Below are positions 8,157 through 33,060 of a stretch of DNA of 64,000 nucleotides, piece after piece. The position numbers and the translations under genes were made by a program. The stretch covers positions 36,491-100,490 of the forward strand of contig JAIPGM010000006.1 of the NCBI GenBank assembly GCA_021735655.1, read 5' to 3'. The notes under the pieces were generated by a model. The model was given only the letters and a program-made list of their open reading frames with translations. It made no database searches and had not been told where the DNA came from. How positions within the stretch are numbered: position 1 is the stretch's first letter; every line of letters begins with the position of its first letter. The stretch comes from Candidatus Omnitrophota bacterium (GTDB lineage Bacteria > Omnitrophota > Gorgyraeia > Duberdicusellales > 4484-171).

Positions 8157-8888
8157 ATGTTCTGGATTTGGATAATGATTATTATGATAGTAATGGCCGC
8201 TGGGGTTGTAACCTTAGCTCTCCTGCCGACCTCTAAAGAATTGGCTTATTTAGAAAAATTACGAAAAATAGCTGATGATTTGCTTTATAGACTAAAAAAC
8301 ACCTTAAGAGAAGCCTGGAAAGAAAAGAAAAAACTTCCACTACCACTTGTAATTTTGGGGGCTGTCTGGATATTGAATGGCTTATATATAAGCATAAGTA
8401 CTTTAATGACCCCTTCTCAAATCACAAAACTAGAGACTCTAGCTGGTATATTCAGGATCTTAAGCATCGGTTGGATTATTATTGGGGTAACTTTATTTAA
8501 CGGCTATATTTTAAGTAGAAAATTTGCCTTTATCGCCGCAGGAATAGTAATTAGCCTTGGTATTGCTGTTATTGCAGTACCACCGCTTACCCAAGAAGAA
8601 TATCTTCTGCAACAATATGAAATATATCTACAAAATCAACAGTATCAACAAAATACTCTAGGAATTAATGAATATGTAACCTCGCGGCTGGTAGATCCTG
8701 GCGAAGGTAGGCCTACGAAAGCTGAGATAACCAAAGAACAAGCTATAGCTATAATCAATATGCTTATTGCCCTGATTACGATACTTTATCTAATTACTCC
8801 GAAAGCTAAAAAATATTTTGGTATCGAAAAGGAGCAATCTTTTTCATTTAAAGAGGGAATTGGTAGTTCATTTCGTCGCTACCGCTAA
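8157..8888 (+). CDS. Multi-TM membrane protein with a Q-rich segment. It is the first gene after the last attC; it may be an attC-less terminal cassette or the chromosomal boundary.
   Basis: 243 aa with several hydrophobic helices and a QQYEIYLQNQQYQQN stretch. No attC follows it. Its 3' end overlaps era convergently by 4 nt. Confidence 0.45.
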   Translation: MFWIWIMIIMIVMAAGVVTLALLPTSKELAYLEKLRKIADDLLYRLKNTLREAWKEKKKLPLPLVILGAVWILNGLYISISTLMTPSQITKLETLAGIFRILSIGWIIIGVTLFNGYILSRKFAFIAAGIVISLGIAVIAVPPLTQEEYLLQQYEIYLQNQQYQQNTLGINEYVTSRLVDPGEGRPTKAEITKEQAIAIINMLIALITILYLITPKAKKYFGIEKEQSFSFKEGIGSSFRRYR

Positions 8889-9814
8889 TCCAACCAGTAG
8901 CCTAATTCTTTTAATATTCGAGGACGTTCTTGCCAATCTTTTAAAACTGTAACCCAAATATCTAAAAACACTTTCTTGCCATATATCTTTCCGATCTCAA
9001 GACGCGACTCAATTCCAACATTTTTAAGTATTTGGCCATTTTTACCGACAACTATTTTTTTCTGAGAATCCCTTTCTACATAAATATTCGCCTTTACGTA
9101 TACGACCTTTTTTTTATCCTTTATTTCAGAAATCTCAACTGCCAAGGAATGCGGTAACTCCTCATCCAACTGTAAAAATAACTTTTCGCGTATTATGTCA
9201 GCAACCCTAAATTTATCAGGAAAATCAGTTAAAGTCTTAACATCGTAATAAGCTTGAGCTACCGGCAAGATTTCCACCAAAACATCTCTCAACTTGTCGA
9301 TATTTTTCCCAGTCTTAGCTGAAAGCGGAATATAATATTCTAAAAAACTATCCTTCCCAGCCTTCTTAGACTTCTCTTCCCACAAAGCCATATAATCATT
9401 AAGGAACTTTACTCCTTTATCCACTTTGTTAAGCACAATTATGGTTTTTACTTTTTGAGTTGTGATAATTTTCATTAGGGTTTCCTCTTCCTGCCCGGGT
9501 TTGCGGGAAAGATCAACCACGTAAATTATTAAATCACACCCTTCAATAGATCTTTTAGCTATCGTATTAAGATGAGAGCTTAGTTTATCTTTAAACGAAT
9601 GGATTCCCGGAGTATCGACAAAAATTGCCTGGGCATCTTTTAAATTCATAATTCCCCTTATTTGATGCCGAGTTGTCTGAGGAATGCTAGACATAATACT
9701 TATCTTATCCCCAACCAAAGCATTAAGGAGCGTTGACTTTCCTACATTCGGACGACCCAAAATTGCTATAAAACCTGATTTAAAATTTTTACTAATCATA
9801 GTTAATCCTTCCAA
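8885..9814 (-). CDS. era: GTPase Era.
   Basis: ILGRPNVGKSTLLNALVG (G1), DTPGIH, NKVD and a C-terminal KH domain. Confidence 0.9.
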   Translation of the reverse strand: MEGLTMISKNFKSGFIAILGRPNVGKSTLLNALVGDKISIMSSIPQTTRHQIRGIMNLKDAQAIFVDTPGIHSFKDKLSSHLNTIAKRSIEGCDLIIYVVDLSRKPGQEEETLMKIITTQKVKTIIVLNKVDKGVKFLNDYMALWEEKSKKAGKDSFLEYYIPLSAKTGKNIDKLRDVLVEILPVAQAYYDVKTLTDFPDKFRVADIIREKLFLQLDEELPHSLAVEISEIKDKKKVVYVKANIYVERDSQKKIVVGKNGQILKNVGIESRLEIGKIYGKKVFLDIWVTVLKDWQERPRILKELGYWLD

Positions 9815-9837
9815 TTAATTGGTCTATACCTCAAGCC

Positions 9838-11598
9838 TCATTCCGGCTTACCCTGATAAATACTTTTCAAAGATAACTCTAAAAAATCAGCCGCCAGCGG
9901 ATTATAGCCTTCATAAGCAAGCAAAAAGTAAGCGGTTGAAGCTAAAGACCCGGTTCGACCACCCCTAGGAGTTCTCCAGCCATGGCCAGTATCTGCCCCC
10001 GGTGAAGAAGCATAGGGTAAACAAGGATCTTCGCGACCCACCAAAGAAGGAGATGTTATTAGCATTTTCTGTAATTCATTAAAATAAAAATAAGCTTTCT
10101 TTAAGTATTCTTTTGACTTCTCGGGATCCTTATCTTTGAAATAATCAGCCATTATCTCAAAAGCTAATATCATCTGACTGGTCCATTCCCCAGATACTAC
10201 TCCTCCCCGAGCAATATGTTTAGCCTTGGCAAAATCAAAACCAGTTAATTTTGACACTCTTTCCTTATATTGGAATTCGACTGAAACTTGACAATTCTCA
10301 ATAGCAAAATCTAGAATTGCCTCTGGATTCATACCCAAAGAATAAAGCGCTTCCGGGCCGAAAGAACTTACCGACCAAGTATAGGTATCAGTCGCTATAG
10401 TAGAGTCACCCTTACCTCGCTTAACCGGCTGGCCATAATCACTATAAGCATAGCGCGCTACCCAATTTTTTATTCCCTCAGCAATATCTCGATATCTTAC
10501 GTCACCGCTAAGCTCATAAAATAAACGGAAAAAAGCGAAAGCATCAAGATTGTGTTCGGTAGAATACCAAGAAACTTCCGGTCCACCCTTAATTCCTGCC
10601 TCTTTGTCCATCATCTTAATCAAAAATCTACTCACTGTCTCAATTATTGGTAAATATTTTCGATTGCCGGTATGCTTAGTATAGCAAAGTGCCGCCAACC
10701 CTATCCAAGCATTAGGCCCGGAATGTTGAACATATTCGAAAACTCCACCTCGAGTGAAATAAGCATTATAGATAAGTTTATCAGTATTTATTTTATCTAA
10801 ATAAAAATTAAGAATTTTTTCTGCTCTTTCAGTGTCACCACGAACCAAAAAAATAATTGCCGCTAAAGACTGATCATAAGTAAAACAAACCCTTTTAAGA
10901 CTATTGTCTCCTTCGAAACTAAGCACCAGGCCCCGGGAAAGATCCTGTCGGTTCTTAATCCAAGAATACATCCCTTTTATTATCTGAGAAGAAAAACCTA
11001 TTCTTTCTTTATCTAAGCTAGCTACTTCTTTTTTAATATCGCTCTTTGCTGAAGACTCAACCCCTTCAGAAAGAAGCTCTTCCAAGGCTGAGGTTCTTTC
11101 TAAAACTTCAACATAATCACTTACTAATTTTTGATTTGCCTTAGTCAAAGAAAAATTATGCCAAAACAAAGACAAAGCGACGGCAACTAAAACGAACCCC
11201 GCTAAACTTACCGAGAAAGGAATGCTCTTCTTCACAACTGCATATTTAAATATTCTATTACTTGCCGATTTATCAATATCTAAAAAATCTAGACCAGCCA
11301 GATATTGGATAAAATCATCCTCGCCTTTACTTCTTAGCCAAGAAACCTTTGCCTCCAGGCATACCGGTTTAGCTATAAAAGGAAAATTTACCCTTAATGA
11401 TATTCTTGCCCCAGGAGATCTTAGCTTATCGTAAAACCCACGCCAAAGCTCATTAACAATAAGGCAAATTCCACCTTTGCCGATGTCGCGTGTGAATCCT
11501 TGCAACCAAGGCGTGATTCTTCGACCCTGGCTATCAATAATAAAAAATTCGACCGGCAAAACAGTAGAAATTCTTAGATATCTTCGACGGTTACTCAT
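9838..11598 (-). CDS. PilZ domain fused through a TM helix to a large six-hairpin-glycosidase-like domain.
   Basis: N-terminus RRYLRIS...DIGKGGICL is a PilZ RxxxR / DxSxGG-like motif pair. It is followed by a TM helix and a ~400 aa domain rich in W/Y/G, reminiscent of (alpha/alpha)6 glycoside hydrolases or epimerases. Confidence 0.55.
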   Translation of the reverse strand: MSNRRRYLRISTVLPVEFFIIDSQGRRITPWLQGFTRDIGKGGICLIVNELWRGFYDKLRSPGARISLRVNFPFIAKPVCLEAKVSWLRSKGEDDFIQYLAGLDFLDIDKSASNRIFKYAVVKKSIPFSVSLAGFVLVAVALSLFWHNFSLTKANQKLVSDYVEVLERTSALEELLSEGVESSAKSDIKKEVASLDKERIGFSSQIIKGMYSWIKNRQDLSRGLVLSFEGDNSLKRVCFTYDQSLAAIIFLVRGDTERAEKILNFYLDKINTDKLIYNAYFTRGGVFEYVQHSGPNAWIGLAALCYTKHTGNRKYLPIIETVSRFLIKMMDKEAGIKGGPEVSWYSTEHNLDAFAFFRLFYELSGDVRYRDIAEGIKNWVARYAYSDYGQPVKRGKGDSTIATDTYTWSVSSFGPEALYSLGMNPEAILDFAIENCQVSVEFQYKERVSKLTGFDFAKAKHIARGGVVSGEWTSQMILAFEIMADYFKDKDPEKSKEYLKKAYFYFNELQKMLITSPSLVGREDPCLPYASSPGADTGHGWRTPRGGRTGSLASTAYFLLAYEGYNPLAADFLELSLKSIYQGKPE

Positions 11599-11695
11599 AA
11601 TTTAAAAAATTCTTTATTCCTTTACTATTAAAATTCTTGAAAGAAACCGGTGGAATTTTAGATAAATTAAAAAAATGAGAATTTCCTATCTAATA

Positions 11696-12082
11696 CTATT
11701 TCTCTATATTTTTTAATTTTTGATAGAAGACTATAAACTCTTTCAAACCACGCACATTTTCTAAATCCGCATCTTCTAAAATATAAGCGAAATCATCATA
11801 ACCAAGCAAAACTGCCTTCTTTAGTTCATTAATCGCTTGCTTAGGTTTTCCGGTAAGCGAAAGGCTACAAGCAAGATTATAATGAATAACCGGGTCGTCC
11901 GGTTTCAAACTCACTAATTTTTTATCTACAACCAAACCTTGGGTATAAAGACCTTTGCGAGTATAGGCATCCCCTAAAGAAATTAGCGCTCCGACAAAAT
12001 CAGGGCGTTCCTTTAAAATATTTTCATAAAAAGATATCTCTAAATTACTTATTTTTCTAGATTTATCCTTATCCTTCTTCAT
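11696..12082 (-). CDS. TPR-repeat protein.
   Basis: Tetratricopeptide-like helical repeats (ALISLGDAYTRKGLYTQG...). Confidence 0.55.
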   Translation of the reverse strand: MKKDKDKSRKISNLEISFYENILKERPDFVGALISLGDAYTRKGLYTQGLVVDKKLVSLKPDDPVIHYNLACSLSLTGKPKQAINELKKAVLLGYDDFAYILEDADLENVRGLKEFIVFYQKLKNIEK

Positions 12083-14478
12083 TTAACCTTTTCCAAAATA
12101 ATCTCTTCGCGTAATCTATAAATGGCATCTTCAAGGAATTTCTCAAATCTTGAGTATTCCTCAGCCTCAACAAAACGTTTTTTCATCTTAAAATTTTGAT
12201 GGAAATCAATACCCTGGTCAAGTTTCTTGTAAGAAACTTGAAGATCAAACCAAGGATTTTCCAAAATAAATGTTTCCGGTAAATATTTAACTTTCAAATT
12301 TTCCGGCAAAATTATCCTTATCTTAGAATCCCGGCCGTGTAATCCTTCAAAATCTATCGGGTACTTCCTCTGATCTTTACTAATAAGTTTATGATCTAGC
12401 TGAAGTTGATCTAAAACCGGAAGGATTCGTAAATCCCCAGCCGGGTTTAAAACTTTTTTAGCTTCAAAATTATAAGTAAGCATTGGATTTTTGGAAAAAT
12501 CGTCAACATTTTTAATACTATAGTCAACAAAAGTAGAAAGCGACGATATCTCCCGCATTTTTTTACGGAGATCTTCTTCGATTAAGGCCGGGTGTGTATA
12601 CTTTAGATACCAACGATAAGAAGCAGCAAAAAATCCACTACTTATCACTCTGCGAATAACCTTCGCATTCTCGTCAGCATCAACTGTAATTTTCATATCA
12701 TATTTAACTCTATTTTTTTTCAATGTATCGGTAGTAACAATCTTCCAGCCTTGATCAAAAAATACCATCACCGAACGATTCTGATCAGAAAGCGGTATAT
12801 CCATAAAAGGAGTTGTTTCAGAGGTAGGATCCATAAAGATTAATTTATCGTCAATTTCAACAGCAGCAATAGCATGGTTAAAATTAATTGAAGGGAAGCT
12901 TTCCTCGATAGGATAAACGCTATCAGTAGGGATAAGCACCGGATAAGCCTTAAGGCCAGCTTCTCGGAGCAAAGAAACTAATAATACCGCCTGGTCCTTA
13001 CAATCGCCATAGCGATTCACAAACACTTCTTGGGCTGAGTGTGGTTCGTGTCCACCTTCTCCATACTCAATAGCTACATACCGAATATTTTTAGCCACAA
13101 ATTCATGAATTTCTCGAGCCTTGCCAAAGTCATCGGTGGCAGTTTCAATGATTTTACTCAAAAACTCTCTCATGCTTTCAGTTACCTGAATTTTATCTTG
13201 ATAGAGAGATTCCCACCACTCATAAATCTCATCCCATGAAGAAAAGCTCGATATTAGAATTGCTGGGTTAACATAAGCGTAAGACGGCATTGAATACTCG
13301 GGAATTATTGGTTTTATTCGATTGAATTCCCACCTATAGACCTTTGAATCATCACTTTCAGATAAAGATGGCTTAAGATCTATGCCTTCGGCATAATTTT
13401 GATTAAAAAACTTAAAATTTACCGGGCTCTCTCTAGGCGTAACAAGATTAAAGTACGCTTTAAACACTGGGTATTGCTCCCTTAAGCGATAAATAAAGGT
13501 AAATTTGTCCTCGTTAACTAATTTTGATGAATAAATTTTGAATTTATATTCAATGAATGAACCAACATCTACTGAAGGCATAGAAATAATTCGAGCTCGC
13601 GAATTACTATAAAGAGGAAAATTAAGATAGCGGCTAACGTCGCGGATATTCTCTTCTCCGACATATCTAACCTGCCCTTCCTTAGTTATCGTACGAGCAA
13701 ACTCTAGCTCTATACGCTGGTAAGTTGAATCATACCCAATGTCGACTTCAGCTAATTTTTTGCCTCGCTCTTTTAAAACTTGCTCGATAACATGAACCGT
13801 AGATACCGAAGTATTTTTAGGAGTAATCTCCGTCGCCTCATCTACAAGAAGATAAACTGCAGCATCGTCGTTTATTTCAGTTAAAAAACTTTCTGCACTT
13901 TTAGTGATTTCTTTTATCTCTAAAGGTATTCCTTCCTCTACTTTGGCCCCAATCGCTTTAATTCTTTCTTTGGCCCGAGACTCAAAAGGCGGTGTAACTT
14001 TAGCATATATTTTTAAAGCCTTAGGGAAAAGATTTTTCTCCTCTAATACTGTTCCATAAAGATAAAGGTATTCTGGGTCTTTAGGCAGCGGTTTTAATTG
14101 TTCAAAAATTTCAATAGCTAAGGCGTACTCTTTAAGCCTGGTATAAGCCTTAGCTAAAATAACTCTTGCCTGAATCAGATCAAAACCTTTAAACAGATCA
14201 ATTGTGCGCTGATAATCCTTGAAACCATAATAGAATTGGCCAAGCTCAAGGCGTAAGGAATTATTTTGGGGGTCACTCTTGAGAAGTTCTTGATGTTTAC
14301 TAATCAGATCTTCATATCGCTCCGAGAAATCACCAAAATCATCAGAATTAATGGGTTTATCCATTGGCTGGGGAGCACAACCTAAAAGGGCAGCAATAGC
14401 TACAAACAAAATAAACCTGGAAGCGTAAACTTCCCAAATAATATTTTTTCTAAGCTTCGGAGTTCTAAAAATAGGCAT
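12079..14478 (-). CDS. TPR plus transglutaminase-like cysteine protease domain protein.
   Basis: N-terminal lipoprotein-like signal and TPRs. C-terminal RYGDCKDQAVLLVSLLREAGL is a transglutaminase core Cys motif. Confidence 0.65.
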   Translation of the reverse strand: MPIFRTPKLRKNIIWEVYASRFILFVAIAALLGCAPQPMDKPINSDDFGDFSERYEDLISKHQELLKSDPQNNSLRLELGQFYYGFKDYQRTIDLFKGFDLIQARVILAKAYTRLKEYALAIEIFEQLKPLPKDPEYLYLYGTVLEEKNLFPKALKIYAKVTPPFESRAKERIKAIGAKVEEGIPLEIKEITKSAESFLTEINDDAAVYLLVDEATEITPKNTSVSTVHVIEQVLKERGKKLAEVDIGYDSTYQRIELEFARTITKEGQVRYVGEENIRDVSRYLNFPLYSNSRARIISMPSVDVGSFIEYKFKIYSSKLVNEDKFTFIYRLREQYPVFKAYFNLVTPRESPVNFKFFNQNYAEGIDLKPSLSESDDSKVYRWEFNRIKPIIPEYSMPSYAYVNPAILISSFSSWDEIYEWWESLYQDKIQVTESMREFLSKIIETATDDFGKAREIHEFVAKNIRYVAIEYGEGGHEPHSAQEVFVNRYGDCKDQAVLLVSLLREAGLKAYPVLIPTDSVYPIEESFPSINFNHAIAAVEIDDKLIFMDPTSETTPFMDIPLSDQNRSVMVFFDQGWKIVTTDTLKKNRVKYDMKITVDADENAKVIRRVISSGFFAASYRWYLKYTHPALIEEDLRKKMREISSLSTFVDYSIKNVDDFSKNPMLTYNFEAKKVLNPAGDLRILPVLDQLQLDHKLISKDQRKYPIDFEGLHGRDSKIRIILPENLKVKYLPETFILENPWFDLQVSYKKLDQGIDFHQNFKMKKRFVEAEEYSRFEKFLEDAIYRLREEIILEKVK

Positions 14479-14481
14479 AAA

Positions 14482-15633
14482 TTATTTTAACTTTCCTAAA
14501 AACTTCTCAATTCGAATTATTGCTTCTTTTAAATTGTCTAAAGAATTAGCATAGGAAATTCTAATATAGGAACTAAGCTCTTTACCAAAAGCTACTCCCG
14601 GCACTACAGCTACCTTTTGTTCAAATAAAAGTTTTTTAGCAAAGCTCAATGAATCTATCTTAAATTTTTCTAAAGAAGGAAAGCAGTAAAATGCTCCTTG
14701 CGGTAAATTCGTAGTTAACCCTAACCGATTTAGCTCTTTTACGACAAGCTCTCTTCTGCGTCGATAGGCCGAACGCATAGCTATAACTTCCTTCTGACTA
14801 AGCAAAGCTTCCGAGGCAGCGACTTGAGAGATAGTCGGCACACACATTATTGAAAAAGAATGGATTTTAGACATTGCTGCGATGATCTCCTGACTAGCGC
14901 AAGCATAACCTACCCGAAAGCCAGTCATCGCATAACCCTTGGAAAATCCATTAAGCAAAATCGTTCGCTTTTTTGCCTCTTTAGACAAACTAGCAAAAGG
15001 GCTATGTTTTTGATCGTAAATCAATTCATCATAAACTTCATCGCTAATAACCAATGTCTTTTTATTAGCGATAACCTTCCATATTTTTTTAAGCTCTAGA
15101 GAGGTATAATGTGTCCCGGTAGGGTTGGAAGGATTATTTAAAATAATCGCTTTTGGGTTAGCTTTAAGAAGCTCTTTTAATCTCTTAATATCTATTTTAA
15201 AATTATCTTCGGCCTTTGTAGTTAAATAGAGAACCTGGCCTCCAGAAATCTCAACCAGAGCCGGATAAGCGACATAATGCGGAGTCACTACGATAACCTT
15301 ATCTTTTGGCTCTAAGATAGCCCTCAAAGCCAAATCTAAAGCCTCACTCACCCCAACAGTTATCAGGATTTCGGTTTTAGGATCATAGCTTAAAGAAAAT
15401 CTTCTCTTATAGTGGTTGGCTATGTCCCGACGCAAAACAAAAAGCCCCTGGTTTGAGGTGTAAGAAGTCATTCCTTCCTCAAGGGCGGTAATTGCCTTTT
15501 CGCGAACCCTCCAAGGAGAGATAAAATCTGGCTCACCGACCCCCAGAGAAATAACCTCTGGCATTCCCATAACTAAATCGAAAAATGCCCGTATCCCCGA
15601 AGGGGCTAATTTTTTAACTCTTTTAGAAATCAT
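14482..15633 (-). CDS. Class I/II (aspartate/alanine-type) PLP aminotransferase.
   Basis: SFSKGYAMTGFRVGY PLP-lysine motif and overall AAT fold signatures. Confidence 0.85.
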   Translation of the reverse strand: MISKRVKKLAPSGIRAFFDLVMGMPEVISLGVGEPDFISPWRVREKAITALEEGMTSYTSNQGLFVLRRDIANHYKRRFSLSYDPKTEILITVGVSEALDLALRAILEPKDKVIVVTPHYVAYPALVEISGGQVLYLTTKAEDNFKIDIKRLKELLKANPKAIILNNPSNPTGTHYTSLELKKIWKVIANKKTLVISDEVYDELIYDQKHSPFASLSKEAKKRTILLNGFSKGYAMTGFRVGYACASQEIIAAMSKIHSFSIMCVPTISQVAASEALLSQKEVIAMRSAYRRRRELVVKELNRLGLTTNLPQGAFYCFPSLEKFKIDSLSFAKKLLFEQKVAVVPGVAFGKELSSYIRISYANSLDNLKEAIIRIEKFLGKLK

Positions 15634-15643
15634 TCATATCCCT

Positions 15644-16126
15644 TTAATAGGTTATTGCTAATCTTTGATTCTTATCTTTCTTTACTAAAATAACTCCATC
15701 TTCTTTATATTTCTTAAGCATAAAATGAGTCGCGGTTCCTCTTACCTGATTTAAAGGAGCGAGCTTCTCGGAAACAAAACTGGCCACCGTATTGATATCG
15801 TCACCTTCAACCACCAATAATAAATCATAAGTTCCTGAAAGAAGATAACAACTTTTTACTTCCGGGAAACGATAAATTCGCTCAGCCACTAAATCAAACC
15901 CCACATCTTTCTGAGGAGCTATTTTAACTTCGATTAGAGCCCGAACACTCCGCTCACCTTTAATTTTCTGCCGATTAATCACAGTCTTGTAGTTTACAAT
16001 AACTCCTTTTTTCTCATAGCTTTTTATAGCCTTACTGAGCTCTTGCTTACTTTTACCAGTTAACTTCTGAAGCTCCTCCAAGGTAATCCGAGCATTACTT
16101 TCTAAAATCTCTAATATATCATCCAT
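15644..16126 (-). CDS. Lrp/AsnC family transcriptional regulator.
   Basis: N-terminal HTH (ARITLEELQKLTGKSKQELSKAIKSYEKKGVI) and a C-terminal RAM domain. Confidence 0.8.
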   Translation of the reverse strand: MDDILEILESNARITLEELQKLTGKSKQELSKAIKSYEKKGVIVNYKTVINRQKIKGERSVRALIEVKIAPQKDVGFDLVAERIYRFPEVKSCYLLSGTYDLLLVVEGDDINTVASFVSEKLAPLNQVRGTATHFMLKKYKEDGVILVKKDKNQRLAITY

Positions 16127-16180
16127 GTTAAGCCCTCCTTTTAGCTTCTCTATTGTATCAAAATAGCTTTTGCTTGTAAA

Positions 16181-17017
16181 TTAAGCTCTCGCCGAGGGAA
16201 TTTGCACTTCTAAAACTCTTCTTAAGAGTATCCGGCGCGGCTCTTTAGCTTGCCCCTGGAATAAAAAATAAAAAAATCTCCCCTCTCTAACGAGACGCAA
16301 AGGTAATACCTGATCATGCTCTAAGATATTTGAACTGGAAAAATATTTTATATCTATTTTGTGGTCGTTTTCGATGGCTTCCTTTAAAATAGCAATTTTT
16401 TTATCTTCTTTGATTTTAAAAATATCATTACTGCAACTATAAAGCGACACGTAATCATCTAGGCTTTCAATCTTTTTATTTTTAAACCCATCTATAAGCT
16501 TTAAGAAAGTTTGGTAGGTCACCAAAGCATCGTCTAAAGCTCTATGCAGCCCACCTTTACAATCAATGCCTAATGACTTAGCTACCGTTCCTAAATTGTA
16601 ACGAGGCAAATCAAGCCCATCTCTAGCCATCGCCAAGATATCCACTGTCGGTAAGTTTAAAGGTTCCCGTCCAATTCTCTTTAAACTATAATCAATAAAC
16701 TTTGCATCAAATTCAACATTATAGGCACAAAGTACTGTCCCTTTTAAAAAATCAAGAAGCTTATCGGCTAGCTTTTCAAACGGCGGAGCATACTTTAAAT
16801 CTTGATCTGATATTTTATGAATTTGATAGGCTGCCTGAGGTACGGCCATTTTAGGGTTTACCAAACTATGAAATTTATCAACGATCTTTCTGTTCTTAAC
16901 TTTAAAAGCCCCAATTTCACAGATGGCGTCACCCATGACCACATCTAAACCGGTAGTTTCTAAGTCTAAAAAGGTTAGCTGATAATCTTCAAGCGGTTTG
17001 CTTAAATCTATATCCAT
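16181..17017 (-). CDS. DEDDh 3'-5' exonuclease (DnaQ/epsilon-like) with a C-terminal extension.
   Basis: FLDLETTGLD, CAYNVEFDAKF and HRALDDALV exo motifs I-III. Confidence 0.7.
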   Translation of the reverse strand: MDIDLSKPLEDYQLTFLDLETTGLDVVMGDAICEIGAFKVKNRKIVDKFHSLVNPKMAVPQAAYQIHKISDQDLKYAPPFEKLADKLLDFLKGTVLCAYNVEFDAKFIDYSLKRIGREPLNLPTVDILAMARDGLDLPRYNLGTVAKSLGIDCKGGLHRALDDALVTYQTFLKLIDGFKNKKIESLDDYVSLYSCSNDIFKIKEDKKIAILKEAIENDHKIDIKYFSSSNILEHDQVLPLRLVREGRFFYFLFQGQAKEPRRILLRRVLEVQIPSARA

Positions 17018-30666: not shown

Positions 30667-32138
30667 ATATGTTTGAATCACTAGCTACTATCGACCCCTT
30701 GGGCATCATAGCATTTCTACTCTTTATTGCAATAATGCTTCTGTTAATCTATTTATTAAAAAAAGGGAAACGCCTTTCGATACTAGAAAAAGAACTTATT
30801 CACCAAGATAGGATAATTAAAAATTTAGACCAGCAAGCAAAGCTAATTATAAAAAGCGACATGGAAGTAAAGCTTTACCAACAAGAGATAGAAAGTGAAT
30901 TACGTAAATTGACAATGATCAGAAATTTAATCAGCTCTTCGGTACATATTCTCGATAAAGAAACCTTAGTGAGCCAAGTAGATTCAAAAGTTGTCGAAGC
31001 CTTAGGATTCAAGCGAGGTTTAGTTTTAGACTTTAACACTTTGGCGGTTAGAGCGAATATCGGCCTTAGCGCCAAAGAAATTGAGTCGGTAAAAAACGTC
31101 CTCCAATACAAAAAAGAAGCTTTTAAAGAAACTCAGCTTTTACGTCAAGATTCGGAAATTCAAAAACAGCTTCAAGTCGCGACACAATCTGATCAGTTAA
31201 TGGTAGCTACAATAAGATCTAGGGAACAAACCCATTCAATATTCCTAGTTTCCGAACTCTTAACCGCCCCCAACGTTTCGAAGTCAGAAGGCGAAGCTTT
31301 TGTAACTATTTGTAGTTATTTAAGCCAATGCCTAAACAATATCCAGTTATTCGAAGAACTTTATCACACTAAAGATGACTTGGAGAAAAAAATTAAAGAG
31401 AGAACCAGCGAATTAGTTAAATCATTAAGAGCGGTTGAAACTATTAGTAAATCTAAAACTGACTTTGTGTCCAGCGTTTCCCATGAGCTGAGAACCCCGC
31501 TCACCTCAGTAAAAGGATTTTCATCTCTCTTGATCGATGAAAAGTTTGGCAAATTACCCAAAGAGGCCAGAGATCGGCTTATTAAAATTGACACCAATGT
31601 AGACAAACTTATGGACATTGTAAATATCCTTCTAGATATCTCTCGAATCGAATCAGGGAAAACCGAAACTCATATCATCTCCCATGAAATCGTGAAAATT
31701 ATCACTGAAGTTACTGACTTTCTCACTCCGCAAACTCAAAGCAAAGGAATAAAGTTTGCTTTTGATTTACCGAAACAGCTAAAAGTTTATATGGATAAAA
31801 CCCTTATTGAACGCGTTTTTATCAACTTAATTAACAACGCTATAAAATTTACCGGTTCCGACGGTGAGATAAAAATTAGTTGCAAAGAAGACGCAGATCA
31901 AGTTATAATCTCTGTGGCCGATACTGGTTGCGGAATCAAAAAAGATCACCTAGAAAAAGTGTTTCAAGAATTTTTTACAGTAGCCAATCCGGTCAACCAA
32001 GGTGCAAAAGGAAGCGGCCTAGGCCTTTCTTTAGTAAAAAAAATTATCGACATCCATAAAGGAAAAATATGGATAGAATCAGAAGTAGACAAGGGAACTA
32101 CTTTCTACTTTACCTTAAAGGTAGCAAAAAATGTCTAA
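30657..32138 (+). CDS. Sensor histidine kinase (TM, GAF-like, HisKA and HATPase_c).
   Basis: H-box FVSSVSHELRTPLTSVKGF. N, G1 and G2 boxes INNAIKFT, VADTGCGI and GSGLGLSLVKKI. Confidence 0.85.
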   Translation: MELNMFESLATIDPLGIIAFLLFIAIMLLLIYLLKKGKRLSILEKELIHQDRIIKNLDQQAKLIIKSDMEVKLYQQEIESELRKLTMIRNLISSSVHILDKETLVSQVDSKVVEALGFKRGLVLDFNTLAVRANIGLSAKEIESVKNVLQYKKEAFKETQLLRQDSEIQKQLQVATQSDQLMVATIRSREQTHSIFLVSELLTAPNVSKSEGEAFVTICSYLSQCLNNIQLFEELYHTKDDLEKKIKERTSELVKSLRAVETISKSKTDFVSSVSHELRTPLTSVKGFSSLLIDEKFGKLPKEARDRLIKIDTNVDKLMDIVNILLDISRIESGKTETHIISHEIVKIITEVTDFLTPQTQSKGIKFAFDLPKQLKVYMDKTLIERVFINLINNAIKFTGSDGEIKISCKEDADQVIISVADTGCGIKKDHLEKVFQEFFTVANPVNQGAKGSGLGLSLVKKIIDIHKGKIWIESEVDKGTTFYFTLKVAKNV

Positions 32139-33060
32139 ATTAAAAATTTTAATTGTTGATGATGACCCAGATATTTTAGATTTACTTGAAGCAACTTTGC
32201 TCGGAGAATACAATATAGTAAAAGCGGCGACCGGTGAGGAAGCCCTGGCAATGGTTAAAAAAGAATCCCCTAACCTTTTAGTCTTAGACTACGTCCTTCC
32301 AGACACTGAAGGTCCGGAAATTTGTAAAGCAATAAGAAAAGATACTCTGGCTTCAAACACACCAATTCTTATGCTTACCGGAAAAGGTGAAATCGAGGAC
32401 AAGGTCGGCGGCCTAGAAGCTGGCGCCGACGACTATATGCTTAAACCTTTCCTGCCGCAAGAATTAATCGCCAGGGTTCGCATGCTCATTCGTCGTTCCT
32501 GCGCTAATCTAGACGCTAACCCCTTAACTCGTTTACCAGGTAATGCCTCAATAACCAAAGAACTACAAGAAAAAATAACAAGCAAAGAAAAAATAGCAGT
32601 TCTCAATGTTGATATCGATAACTTCAAAGCCCTAAACGACTACTACGGCTTCGAACGAGGAGACAGTGCAATCAAAACAACTGCTCGTATCCTTATCGAC
32701 AGCATTCAAAGTAAAGGAAATATTAATGATTTTGTCGGTCATATCGGAGGCGATGATTTTGTAATCGTCTCAACTCCGGAATGTGCTGAGGAAATTGCAA
32801 AAAAAATAGTTACTGACTTTGACGCCCAGGCCCCTTTATTCTTTAGCGAAGAAGACCGAGCTAAAGGCTATATCGAATCTAAGGGTCGCGACAATGAACT
32901 ACACCGGTTCGGTTTTGTCACTATTTCAATTGGAATTATCGCTAATACAGACCGTGAATTTACTCACACCGCCCAAGTAAGTTCACTCGGAGCCGACATA
33001 AAAAATATCGCTAAGAAATTTAACGGCAGTAAATACATTTTTGACCGACGCAAAGATTAG
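32131..33060 (+). CDS. Response regulator receiver plus a GGDEF-like domain with variant motif GGDDF.
   Basis: Receiver with the phospho-Asp in LLVLDYVLPD. The GGDEF domain reads HIGGDDFVIV. Confidence 0.8.
   Translation: MSKLKILIVDDDPDILDLLEATLLGEYNIVKAATGEEALAMVKKESPNLLVLDYVLPDTEGPEICKAIRKDTLASNTPILMLTGKGEIEDKVGGLEAGADDYMLKPFLPQELIARVRMLIRRSCANLDANPLTRLPGNASITKELQEKITSKEKIAVLNVDIDNFKALNDYYGFERGDSAIKTTARILIDSIQSKGNINDFVGHIGGDDFVIVSTPECAEEIAKKIVTDFDAQAPLFFSEEDRAKGYIESKGRDNELHRFGFVTISIGIIANTDREFTHTAQVSSLGADIKNIAKKFNGSKYIFDRRKD

Follow-up and report, generated by a model that had tools for sequence, protein, structure and literature searches.

A membrane-spanning PilZ protein with an extracytoplasmic six-hairpin barrel, apparently a c-di-GMP effector type mostly restricted to Omnitrophota

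[quoted passage not shown] A gene found in the 64,000-nucleotide stretch of Candidatus Omnitrophota DNA analysed here (the window) raises the question of whether a PilZ domain may also govern an enzyme on the other side of the membrane. The gene (9838..11598; this gene and its upstream neighbours are on the minus strand) encodes 586 amino acids followed by a stop codon, as given by the list of open reading frames. The anatomy of the product, namely a cytoplasmic PilZ domain, a single transmembrane (TM) helix, a two-helix hairpin and an (alpha/alpha)6 barrel outside the membrane, is largely established by the results below. A preliminary description of this DNA had proposed that c-di-GMP directly controls a polysaccharide-modifying activity, which is the most economical reading of such an architecture. 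The homology search returned 1102 homologues at E<=1e-3, the fused architecture was present in at least 407 species-level genomes, and nearly all of the 80 genomes listed belonged to Omnitrophota, Ca. Velamenicoccus archaeovorus included. The protein thus appears to represent a c-di-GMP effector type with one inner-membrane span that is seemingly restricted, for the most part, to this phylum. Omnitrophota are bacteria of very small size, most of them uncultured and some predatory, whose envelope biology is poorly understood.

A canonical PilZ domain was found at residues 3-119 (11242..11592). It matched Pfam PF07238 with 28.5 bits (cut-off, 22.5), covering profile positions 1-99 of 102, and the domain was also matched in 32/32 homologues. 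In the AlphaFold2 model it consists of six strands (residues 15-21, 32-39, 43-49, 65-70, 79-92 and 97-105) and a C-terminal helix that starts at residue 110. The same six-strand-then-helix layout was observed in the model of the long-form homologue P0033. Two motifs were assigned from conservation and from alignment to the solved PilZ protein YpfA (5vx6): the RxxxR c-di-GMP-binding motif R5-R-Y-L-R9 (11572..11586), aligned with RRQYVR, and the (D/N)x(S/G/A)xxG motif D38-I-G-K-G-G43 (11470..11487), aligned with NISAGG. Conservation was evaluated in the N-terminal regions of 185 family members, with identities down to ~30%. Wherever the alignment had no gap, both arginines were kept (R5 in 175/175 sequences, R9 in 176/176), and G43 was present in all of the sequences (185/185). 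Position 38 was D or N in 183 of the 185 (D in 122, N in 61), while position 40 was G in 103, S in 64 and A in 9. The PilZ signature recognised in the preliminary description is in good agreement with these data, since the Pfam cut-off was passed and both motifs are essentially invariant. Judging from the intact motifs, the domain is predicted to be competent for c-di-GMP binding.

Some features of the present copy could be taken as signs of the opposite, i.e. that PilZ has lost c-di-GMP binding and is left with a purely structural role or with the binding of proteins, which would make the whole a constitutive membrane-anchored envelope enzyme. Its Pfam score is modest, the Ser of DxSxxG is replaced by Gly, and the only diguanylate-cyclase-like gene seen in the window carries the motif GGDDF. 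However, both arginines and the D/N...G pattern are essentially invariant down to ~30% identity, and position 40 is limited to G, S and A. Moreover, PilZ domains of fusion proteins have been reported to invariably keep c-di-GMP binding (10.1101/814665). A loss of binding is therefore considered highly improbable. The gene with the GGDDF motif (32131-33060) encodes a REC-GGDEF protein, which the preliminary description had cited in favour of c-di-GMP coupling. The gene is indeed present in the window, but it is found 20 kb away on the opposite strand and within its own sensor operon. Being unlinked and carrying an atypical motif, it lends no specific support to the coupling, and the distance, strand, separate operon and GGDDF motif together rule it out as a dedicated partner.

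The PilZ domain is followed by a single TM helix (residues ~126-147, 11158..11223), which was identified by hydrophobicity and in the model. The top 19-aa Kyte-Doolittle window, at residue 126, reached 2.27, and a window of at least 1.6 was detected near residue 130 in 183/184 relatives. The AlphaFold2 model, proposed as a check in the preliminary description, gave a single unbroken helix for residues 110-177, running from the C-terminal helix of PilZ through the TM segment into the first arm of an extracytoplasmic helical hairpin (residues 148-215, 10954..11157). In PilZ proteins the C-terminal helix has been described as the site of partner contacts (10.1101/814665). The two hairpin arms comprise residues 148-177 and 182-215, with the helix broken at a turn formed by residues 178-181. 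Their equal length in the model suggests an antiparallel packing. The protein shows a ~90-aa length gap with respect to most homologues, which falls exactly at this turn, and in the modelled long form P0033 the arms measure 67 and 72 aa, with a 5-residue break between them. The linker had been described as one TM segment; the helix is there, but it is not a bare connection, since a hairpin of variable length comes after it. The K+R counts flanking the TM helix were 3.9 vs 3.6, showing that the positive-inside rule was not discriminating. The barrel is placed outside the membrane because PilZ is cytoplasmic, there is one TM helix, and most of the standalone relatives of the barrel bear a signal peptide or a lipobox.

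The remaining part of the protein (residues 216-582, 9853..10953) is a glycosidase-like (alpha/alpha)6 six-hairpin barrel that falls outside the curated families. Twelve helices arranged in an inner and an outer ring were found, together with strong structural similarity to solved barrels. The best fold matches in the structure search were two hydrolases, MmpH (Mycolicibacterium hassiacum methylmannose polysaccharide hydrolase, 7qsj) and a GH15-related enzyme (5z3a), from which the barrel differs in that identity is only 11-14% and no sequence-level match was obtained. No curated glycosidase family was matched above threshold, NCBIfam gave no meaningful family for the protein, and the barrel family is without a model in Pfam or NCBIfam. 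When the protein sequence itself was compared with the chains of the PDB, no match was obtained even at E<=10. With the barrel profile, just short and weak matches to GH76 and BT_3782 were obtained from the PDB, and the match to cellobiose 2-epimerase had an E value of only ~8. A second large homology search with this profile yielded no annotated distant relatives among the 120 matches listed, which belonged to the same fused family.

Membership of GH76, the alpha-1,6-mannanases, was tested as well. The present protein was not matched by the Pfam GH76 model even at E<=10; the best value among the 32 homologues was 6.7e-6, still under the cut-off, and two more distant barrel relatives, P0184 and P0214, reached 21.4 and 19.6 bits vs a cut-off of 25.9. 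No member attains it. In the profile alignment to the GH76 chain 6u4z, the sequence YDDNVW sits opposite aGpNaW of the barrel profile. The Asp-Asp of the former, which we take to be the GH76 catalytic pair, is replaced by Gly294-Pro295 (10714..10719), as confirmed by the translation, and G294 is kept in 255/259 fused members. An inactive GH76A variant is altered at D136/D137, which can be compared with this pair. The conserved carboxylates of the barrel are located at other places of the sequence. Consequently, the six-hairpin glycosidase-like domain of the preliminary description stands as a fold, but not as a member of a curated glycoside hydrolase family.

Five residues of the barrel were found to be invariant or nearly so. 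Four of them are candidate catalytic or ligand-binding carboxylates at the N-termini of barrel helices: D242 (10873..10875, helix 1), E348 (10555..10557, helix 5), D404 (10387..10389, helix 7) and E471 (10186..10188, helix 9), the last being the candidate catalytic base. The fifth is a pocket tyrosine, Y529 (10012..10014), assigned by conservation within a PYAS motif. Among the fused members, D242, E348 and D404 were each kept in 256/259, E471 in 258/259 and Y529 in 257/259 sequences. Each of the five was also present in 36/36 divergent barrels of non-fused architectures. According to the secondary structure of the model, every one lies no more than two residues from where an odd-numbered helix begins, and such positions suggest that they are gathered in one pocket.

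MmpH is a soluble cytoplasmic enzyme with Glu262 as the catalytic base, and it is not known to carry a PilZ or TM part. D242 and E471 might be equivalent to Asp47 and Glu262 of MmpH, respectively, by linear position only. An inverting glycosidase of the GH15/clan GH-L-like type would need general acid and general base carboxylates on the two sides of the -1 subsite; invariant carboxylates that might take these places are present, the best fold matches were MmpH and the GH15-related enzyme, and no sequence-level match was obtained. The (alpha/alpha)6 fold also hosts epimerases, isomerases, terpene cyclases, a transaldolase and non-catalytic regulatory subunits, so the conserved pocket residues indicate a conserved ligand site and not hydrolysis as such. 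The barrel could carry out a non-hydrolytic reaction, still under PilZ control, for example the epimerisation or isomerisation of a sugar, which the N-acylglucosamine 2-epimerase superfamily performs, or another of the reactions known for this fold. Enzymes of that superfamily use two catalytic histidines located on the inner helices of the barrel. Within the fused family, conservation extends to H292, H349 and H539, but these are outside the set conserved at >=80% across the wider barrel family, in which the carboxylates are retained. In addition, the top structural matches are hydrolases, and the barrel family is exported, unlike the small-sugar isomerases of that superfamily, which are cytoplasmic. 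A non-hydrolytic barrel is regarded as quite improbable.

The genes next to the PilZ-barrel gene were also analysed. The upstream neighbour encodes a TPR protein of 128 aa (11696..12082), with TPR matches in Pfam and without an N-terminal hydrophobic signal-like segment; a TPR gene lies upstream of the PilZ-barrel gene in 36/54 loci. Its start overlaps by 4 nt the stop of a gene for a 799-aa lipoprotein (12079..14478), in which Pfam detected TPR, DUF3857 (8e-28), a transglutaminase-like core (Transglut_core, 2.4e-11) and DUF3858. A lipobox, LLGC, was found near residue 34, and a Cys-His-Asp triad (C493, H535 and D550) was conserved at >=95% for each residue in 53 orthologues. The transglutaminase-like gene was located within 3 kb upstream of the PilZ-barrel gene, on the same strand, in 48/54 informative loci. 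Such a conserved and co-oriented neighbour suggests a common envelope target for the two proteins. The other neighbours were Era and housekeeping genes. The cluster of the Velamenicoccus clade has the gene of a membrane M48 protease inserted in it, and in one protein an M48 fragment is fused in frame to PilZ. A promoter and terminator scan of 8700-16400 revealed sites no commoner than in shuffled controls and no intergenic terminator, and it speaks neither for nor against an operon.

Among known systems, the closest layout is that of Alg44, the alginate co-polymerase of Pseudomonas aeruginosa. It likewise combines an N-terminal, cytoplasmic canonical PilZ domain bearing RxxxR and DxSxxG, one TM helix and an extracytoplasmic domain, and in it the c-di-GMP signal is passed outward, as would be the case for the present protein. 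Based on this part order, the protein could be a c-di-GMP-activated scaffold or co-polymerase in a machine that makes and exports a polysaccharide, with a hairpin reaching to an outer-membrane component in the manner of membrane-fusion proteins and a barrel that binds or trims the nascent chain. Hairpins of adaptor proteins vary in length, and the arms observed here range from ~30 to ~70 aa; moreover, Wzy_C and PMT_2-type glycosyltransferase genes occur inside some loci. However, the periplasmic part of Alg44 is HlyD/membrane-fusion-protein-like, whereas the present output is an (alpha/alpha)6 barrel on a hairpin, and no HlyD-type domain was matched in the protein in Pfam or NCBIfam. Alg44 is encoded in the alginate synthesis operon. 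The present gene, in contrast, is located among housekeeping genes; its conserved neighbour is the transglutaminase-like lipoprotein and no synthase, and across 80 loci no gene for glycan synthesis or export, synthase or exporter, was consistently adjoining. A scaffolding role of this kind is considered improbable.

The transglutaminase-like neighbour brings to mind the LapD/LapG pair of Pseudomonas fluorescens. LapD carries a degenerate GGDEF-EAL module and a HAMP domain, and its periplasmic output domain has another fold; LapG is a small DUF920 protein. The present sensor is a PilZ domain, the only domain found by Pfam, and the neighbour is a ~800-aa TPR/DUF3857/DUF3858 protein, so the analogy is functional only. 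In both systems a transglutaminase-like Cys-His-Asp protein is involved, as the partner in one and as the conserved neighbour in the other (PMC3032545). If the analogy held, the hairpin and barrel would form a c-di-GMP-controlled docking site that captures or releases the transglutaminase-like cysteine protease lipoprotein, and would not primarily be an enzyme; the switch would decide whether a surface protein or a peptidoglycan peptide is cleaved. The position of the neighbour directly upstream in 48/54 loci, its lipobox and conserved triad are consistent with such a role, as are the M48 protease of the Velamenicoccus-clade cluster and the M48 fragment-PilZ fusion. There is also the precedent of the Lap system, in which inside-out signalling by a membrane-bound c-di-GMP receptor regulates a transglutaminase-like protease of the periplasm that has this triad (PMC3032545; PMC3032553). 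On the other hand, the same pocket residues occur in standalone and giant-protein relatives without such a partner, which speaks for an enzymatic or ligand function that has been kept. The receptor has no domain in common with LapD, gene adjacency being the sole link. Finally, the neighbour was not matched at E<=0.001 by Peptidase_C93 of Pfam, presumably the family of LapG. The docking site is regarded as an unlikely explanation.

The best explanation, to which we give slightly better than even chances, is that cytoplasmic c-di-GMP controls an envelope glycan hydrolase or related enzyme by outward signalling. We infer its four elements, ligand binding, catalysis, substrate and coupling, from the features described above. 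Binding of c-di-GMP to PilZ would change the conformation or oligomeric state of the protein, and this change would be relayed along the continuous helix and the hairpin to the barrel, switching its activity, its access or its binding of a partner. Together with Y529, the carboxylate ring of D242, E348, D404 and E471 would form the active site, and the enzyme, a glycoside hydrolase or a relative that processes glycans, would presumably act on a glycan of the envelope or surface. In this way a second messenger in the cytoplasm would govern, "inside-out", the processing of envelope glycans. If true, this would define a new class of PilZ output, in which an extracytoplasmic carbohydrate-active enzyme is under direct second-messenger control, and provide a compact model of outward signalling over one TM helix. 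Defining the barrel family would also improve the annotation of >1000 database proteins. A broader version of this hypothesis seems doubtful: a core Omnitrophota envelope module in which the PilZ-TM-hairpin-barrel protein controls its own glycan-cleaving pocket as well as the transglutaminase-like lipoprotein and, in some clades, the M48 protease, thereby remodelling a glycoprotein or cell-wall layer. If so, its parts would be unrelated to LapD/LapG yet work in the same mode, and the layer could perhaps be the host-attachment surface of these ultra-small, partly predatory cells. A module of this kind would be the first PilZ-based transmembrane "inside-out" switch to gate an extracytoplasmic enzyme directly.

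Relatives of the barrel outside the fusion offer a further comparison, and their carbohydrate context is in keeping with the explanation preferred above. The 36 non-fused barrels came either from exported standalone proteins or from segments of giant proteins. Barrels of these two kinds are true homologues of the fused barrel, with E values from 1e-25 to 1e-50, and occur in the same phylum. They have the five invariant residues (D, E, D, E and Y) in common with it, and they also recur beside pilZ genes and sugar transporters. They differ in being secreted or embedded in proteins of several thousand residues, with no PilZ domain or TM helix in the same polypeptide. Giant proteins of Omnitrophota have been implicated in cell-wall degradation and are reported to contain GH76-like domains and to have pilZ genes and carbohydrate transporters downstream (preprint, 10.1101/2023.11.21.568195). 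One standalone barrel has a small PilZ gene beside it, which was considered as a "split" N-terminal half of the fusion and rejected, as it encodes a soluble tandem PilZ protein with only 23% identity and no TM helix. The gene of one standalone barrel lipoprotein has a sugar ABC importer and a tandem PilZ as neighbours, and other standalone barrels are found next to a giant protein with GH9 and to a CBM96 protein.

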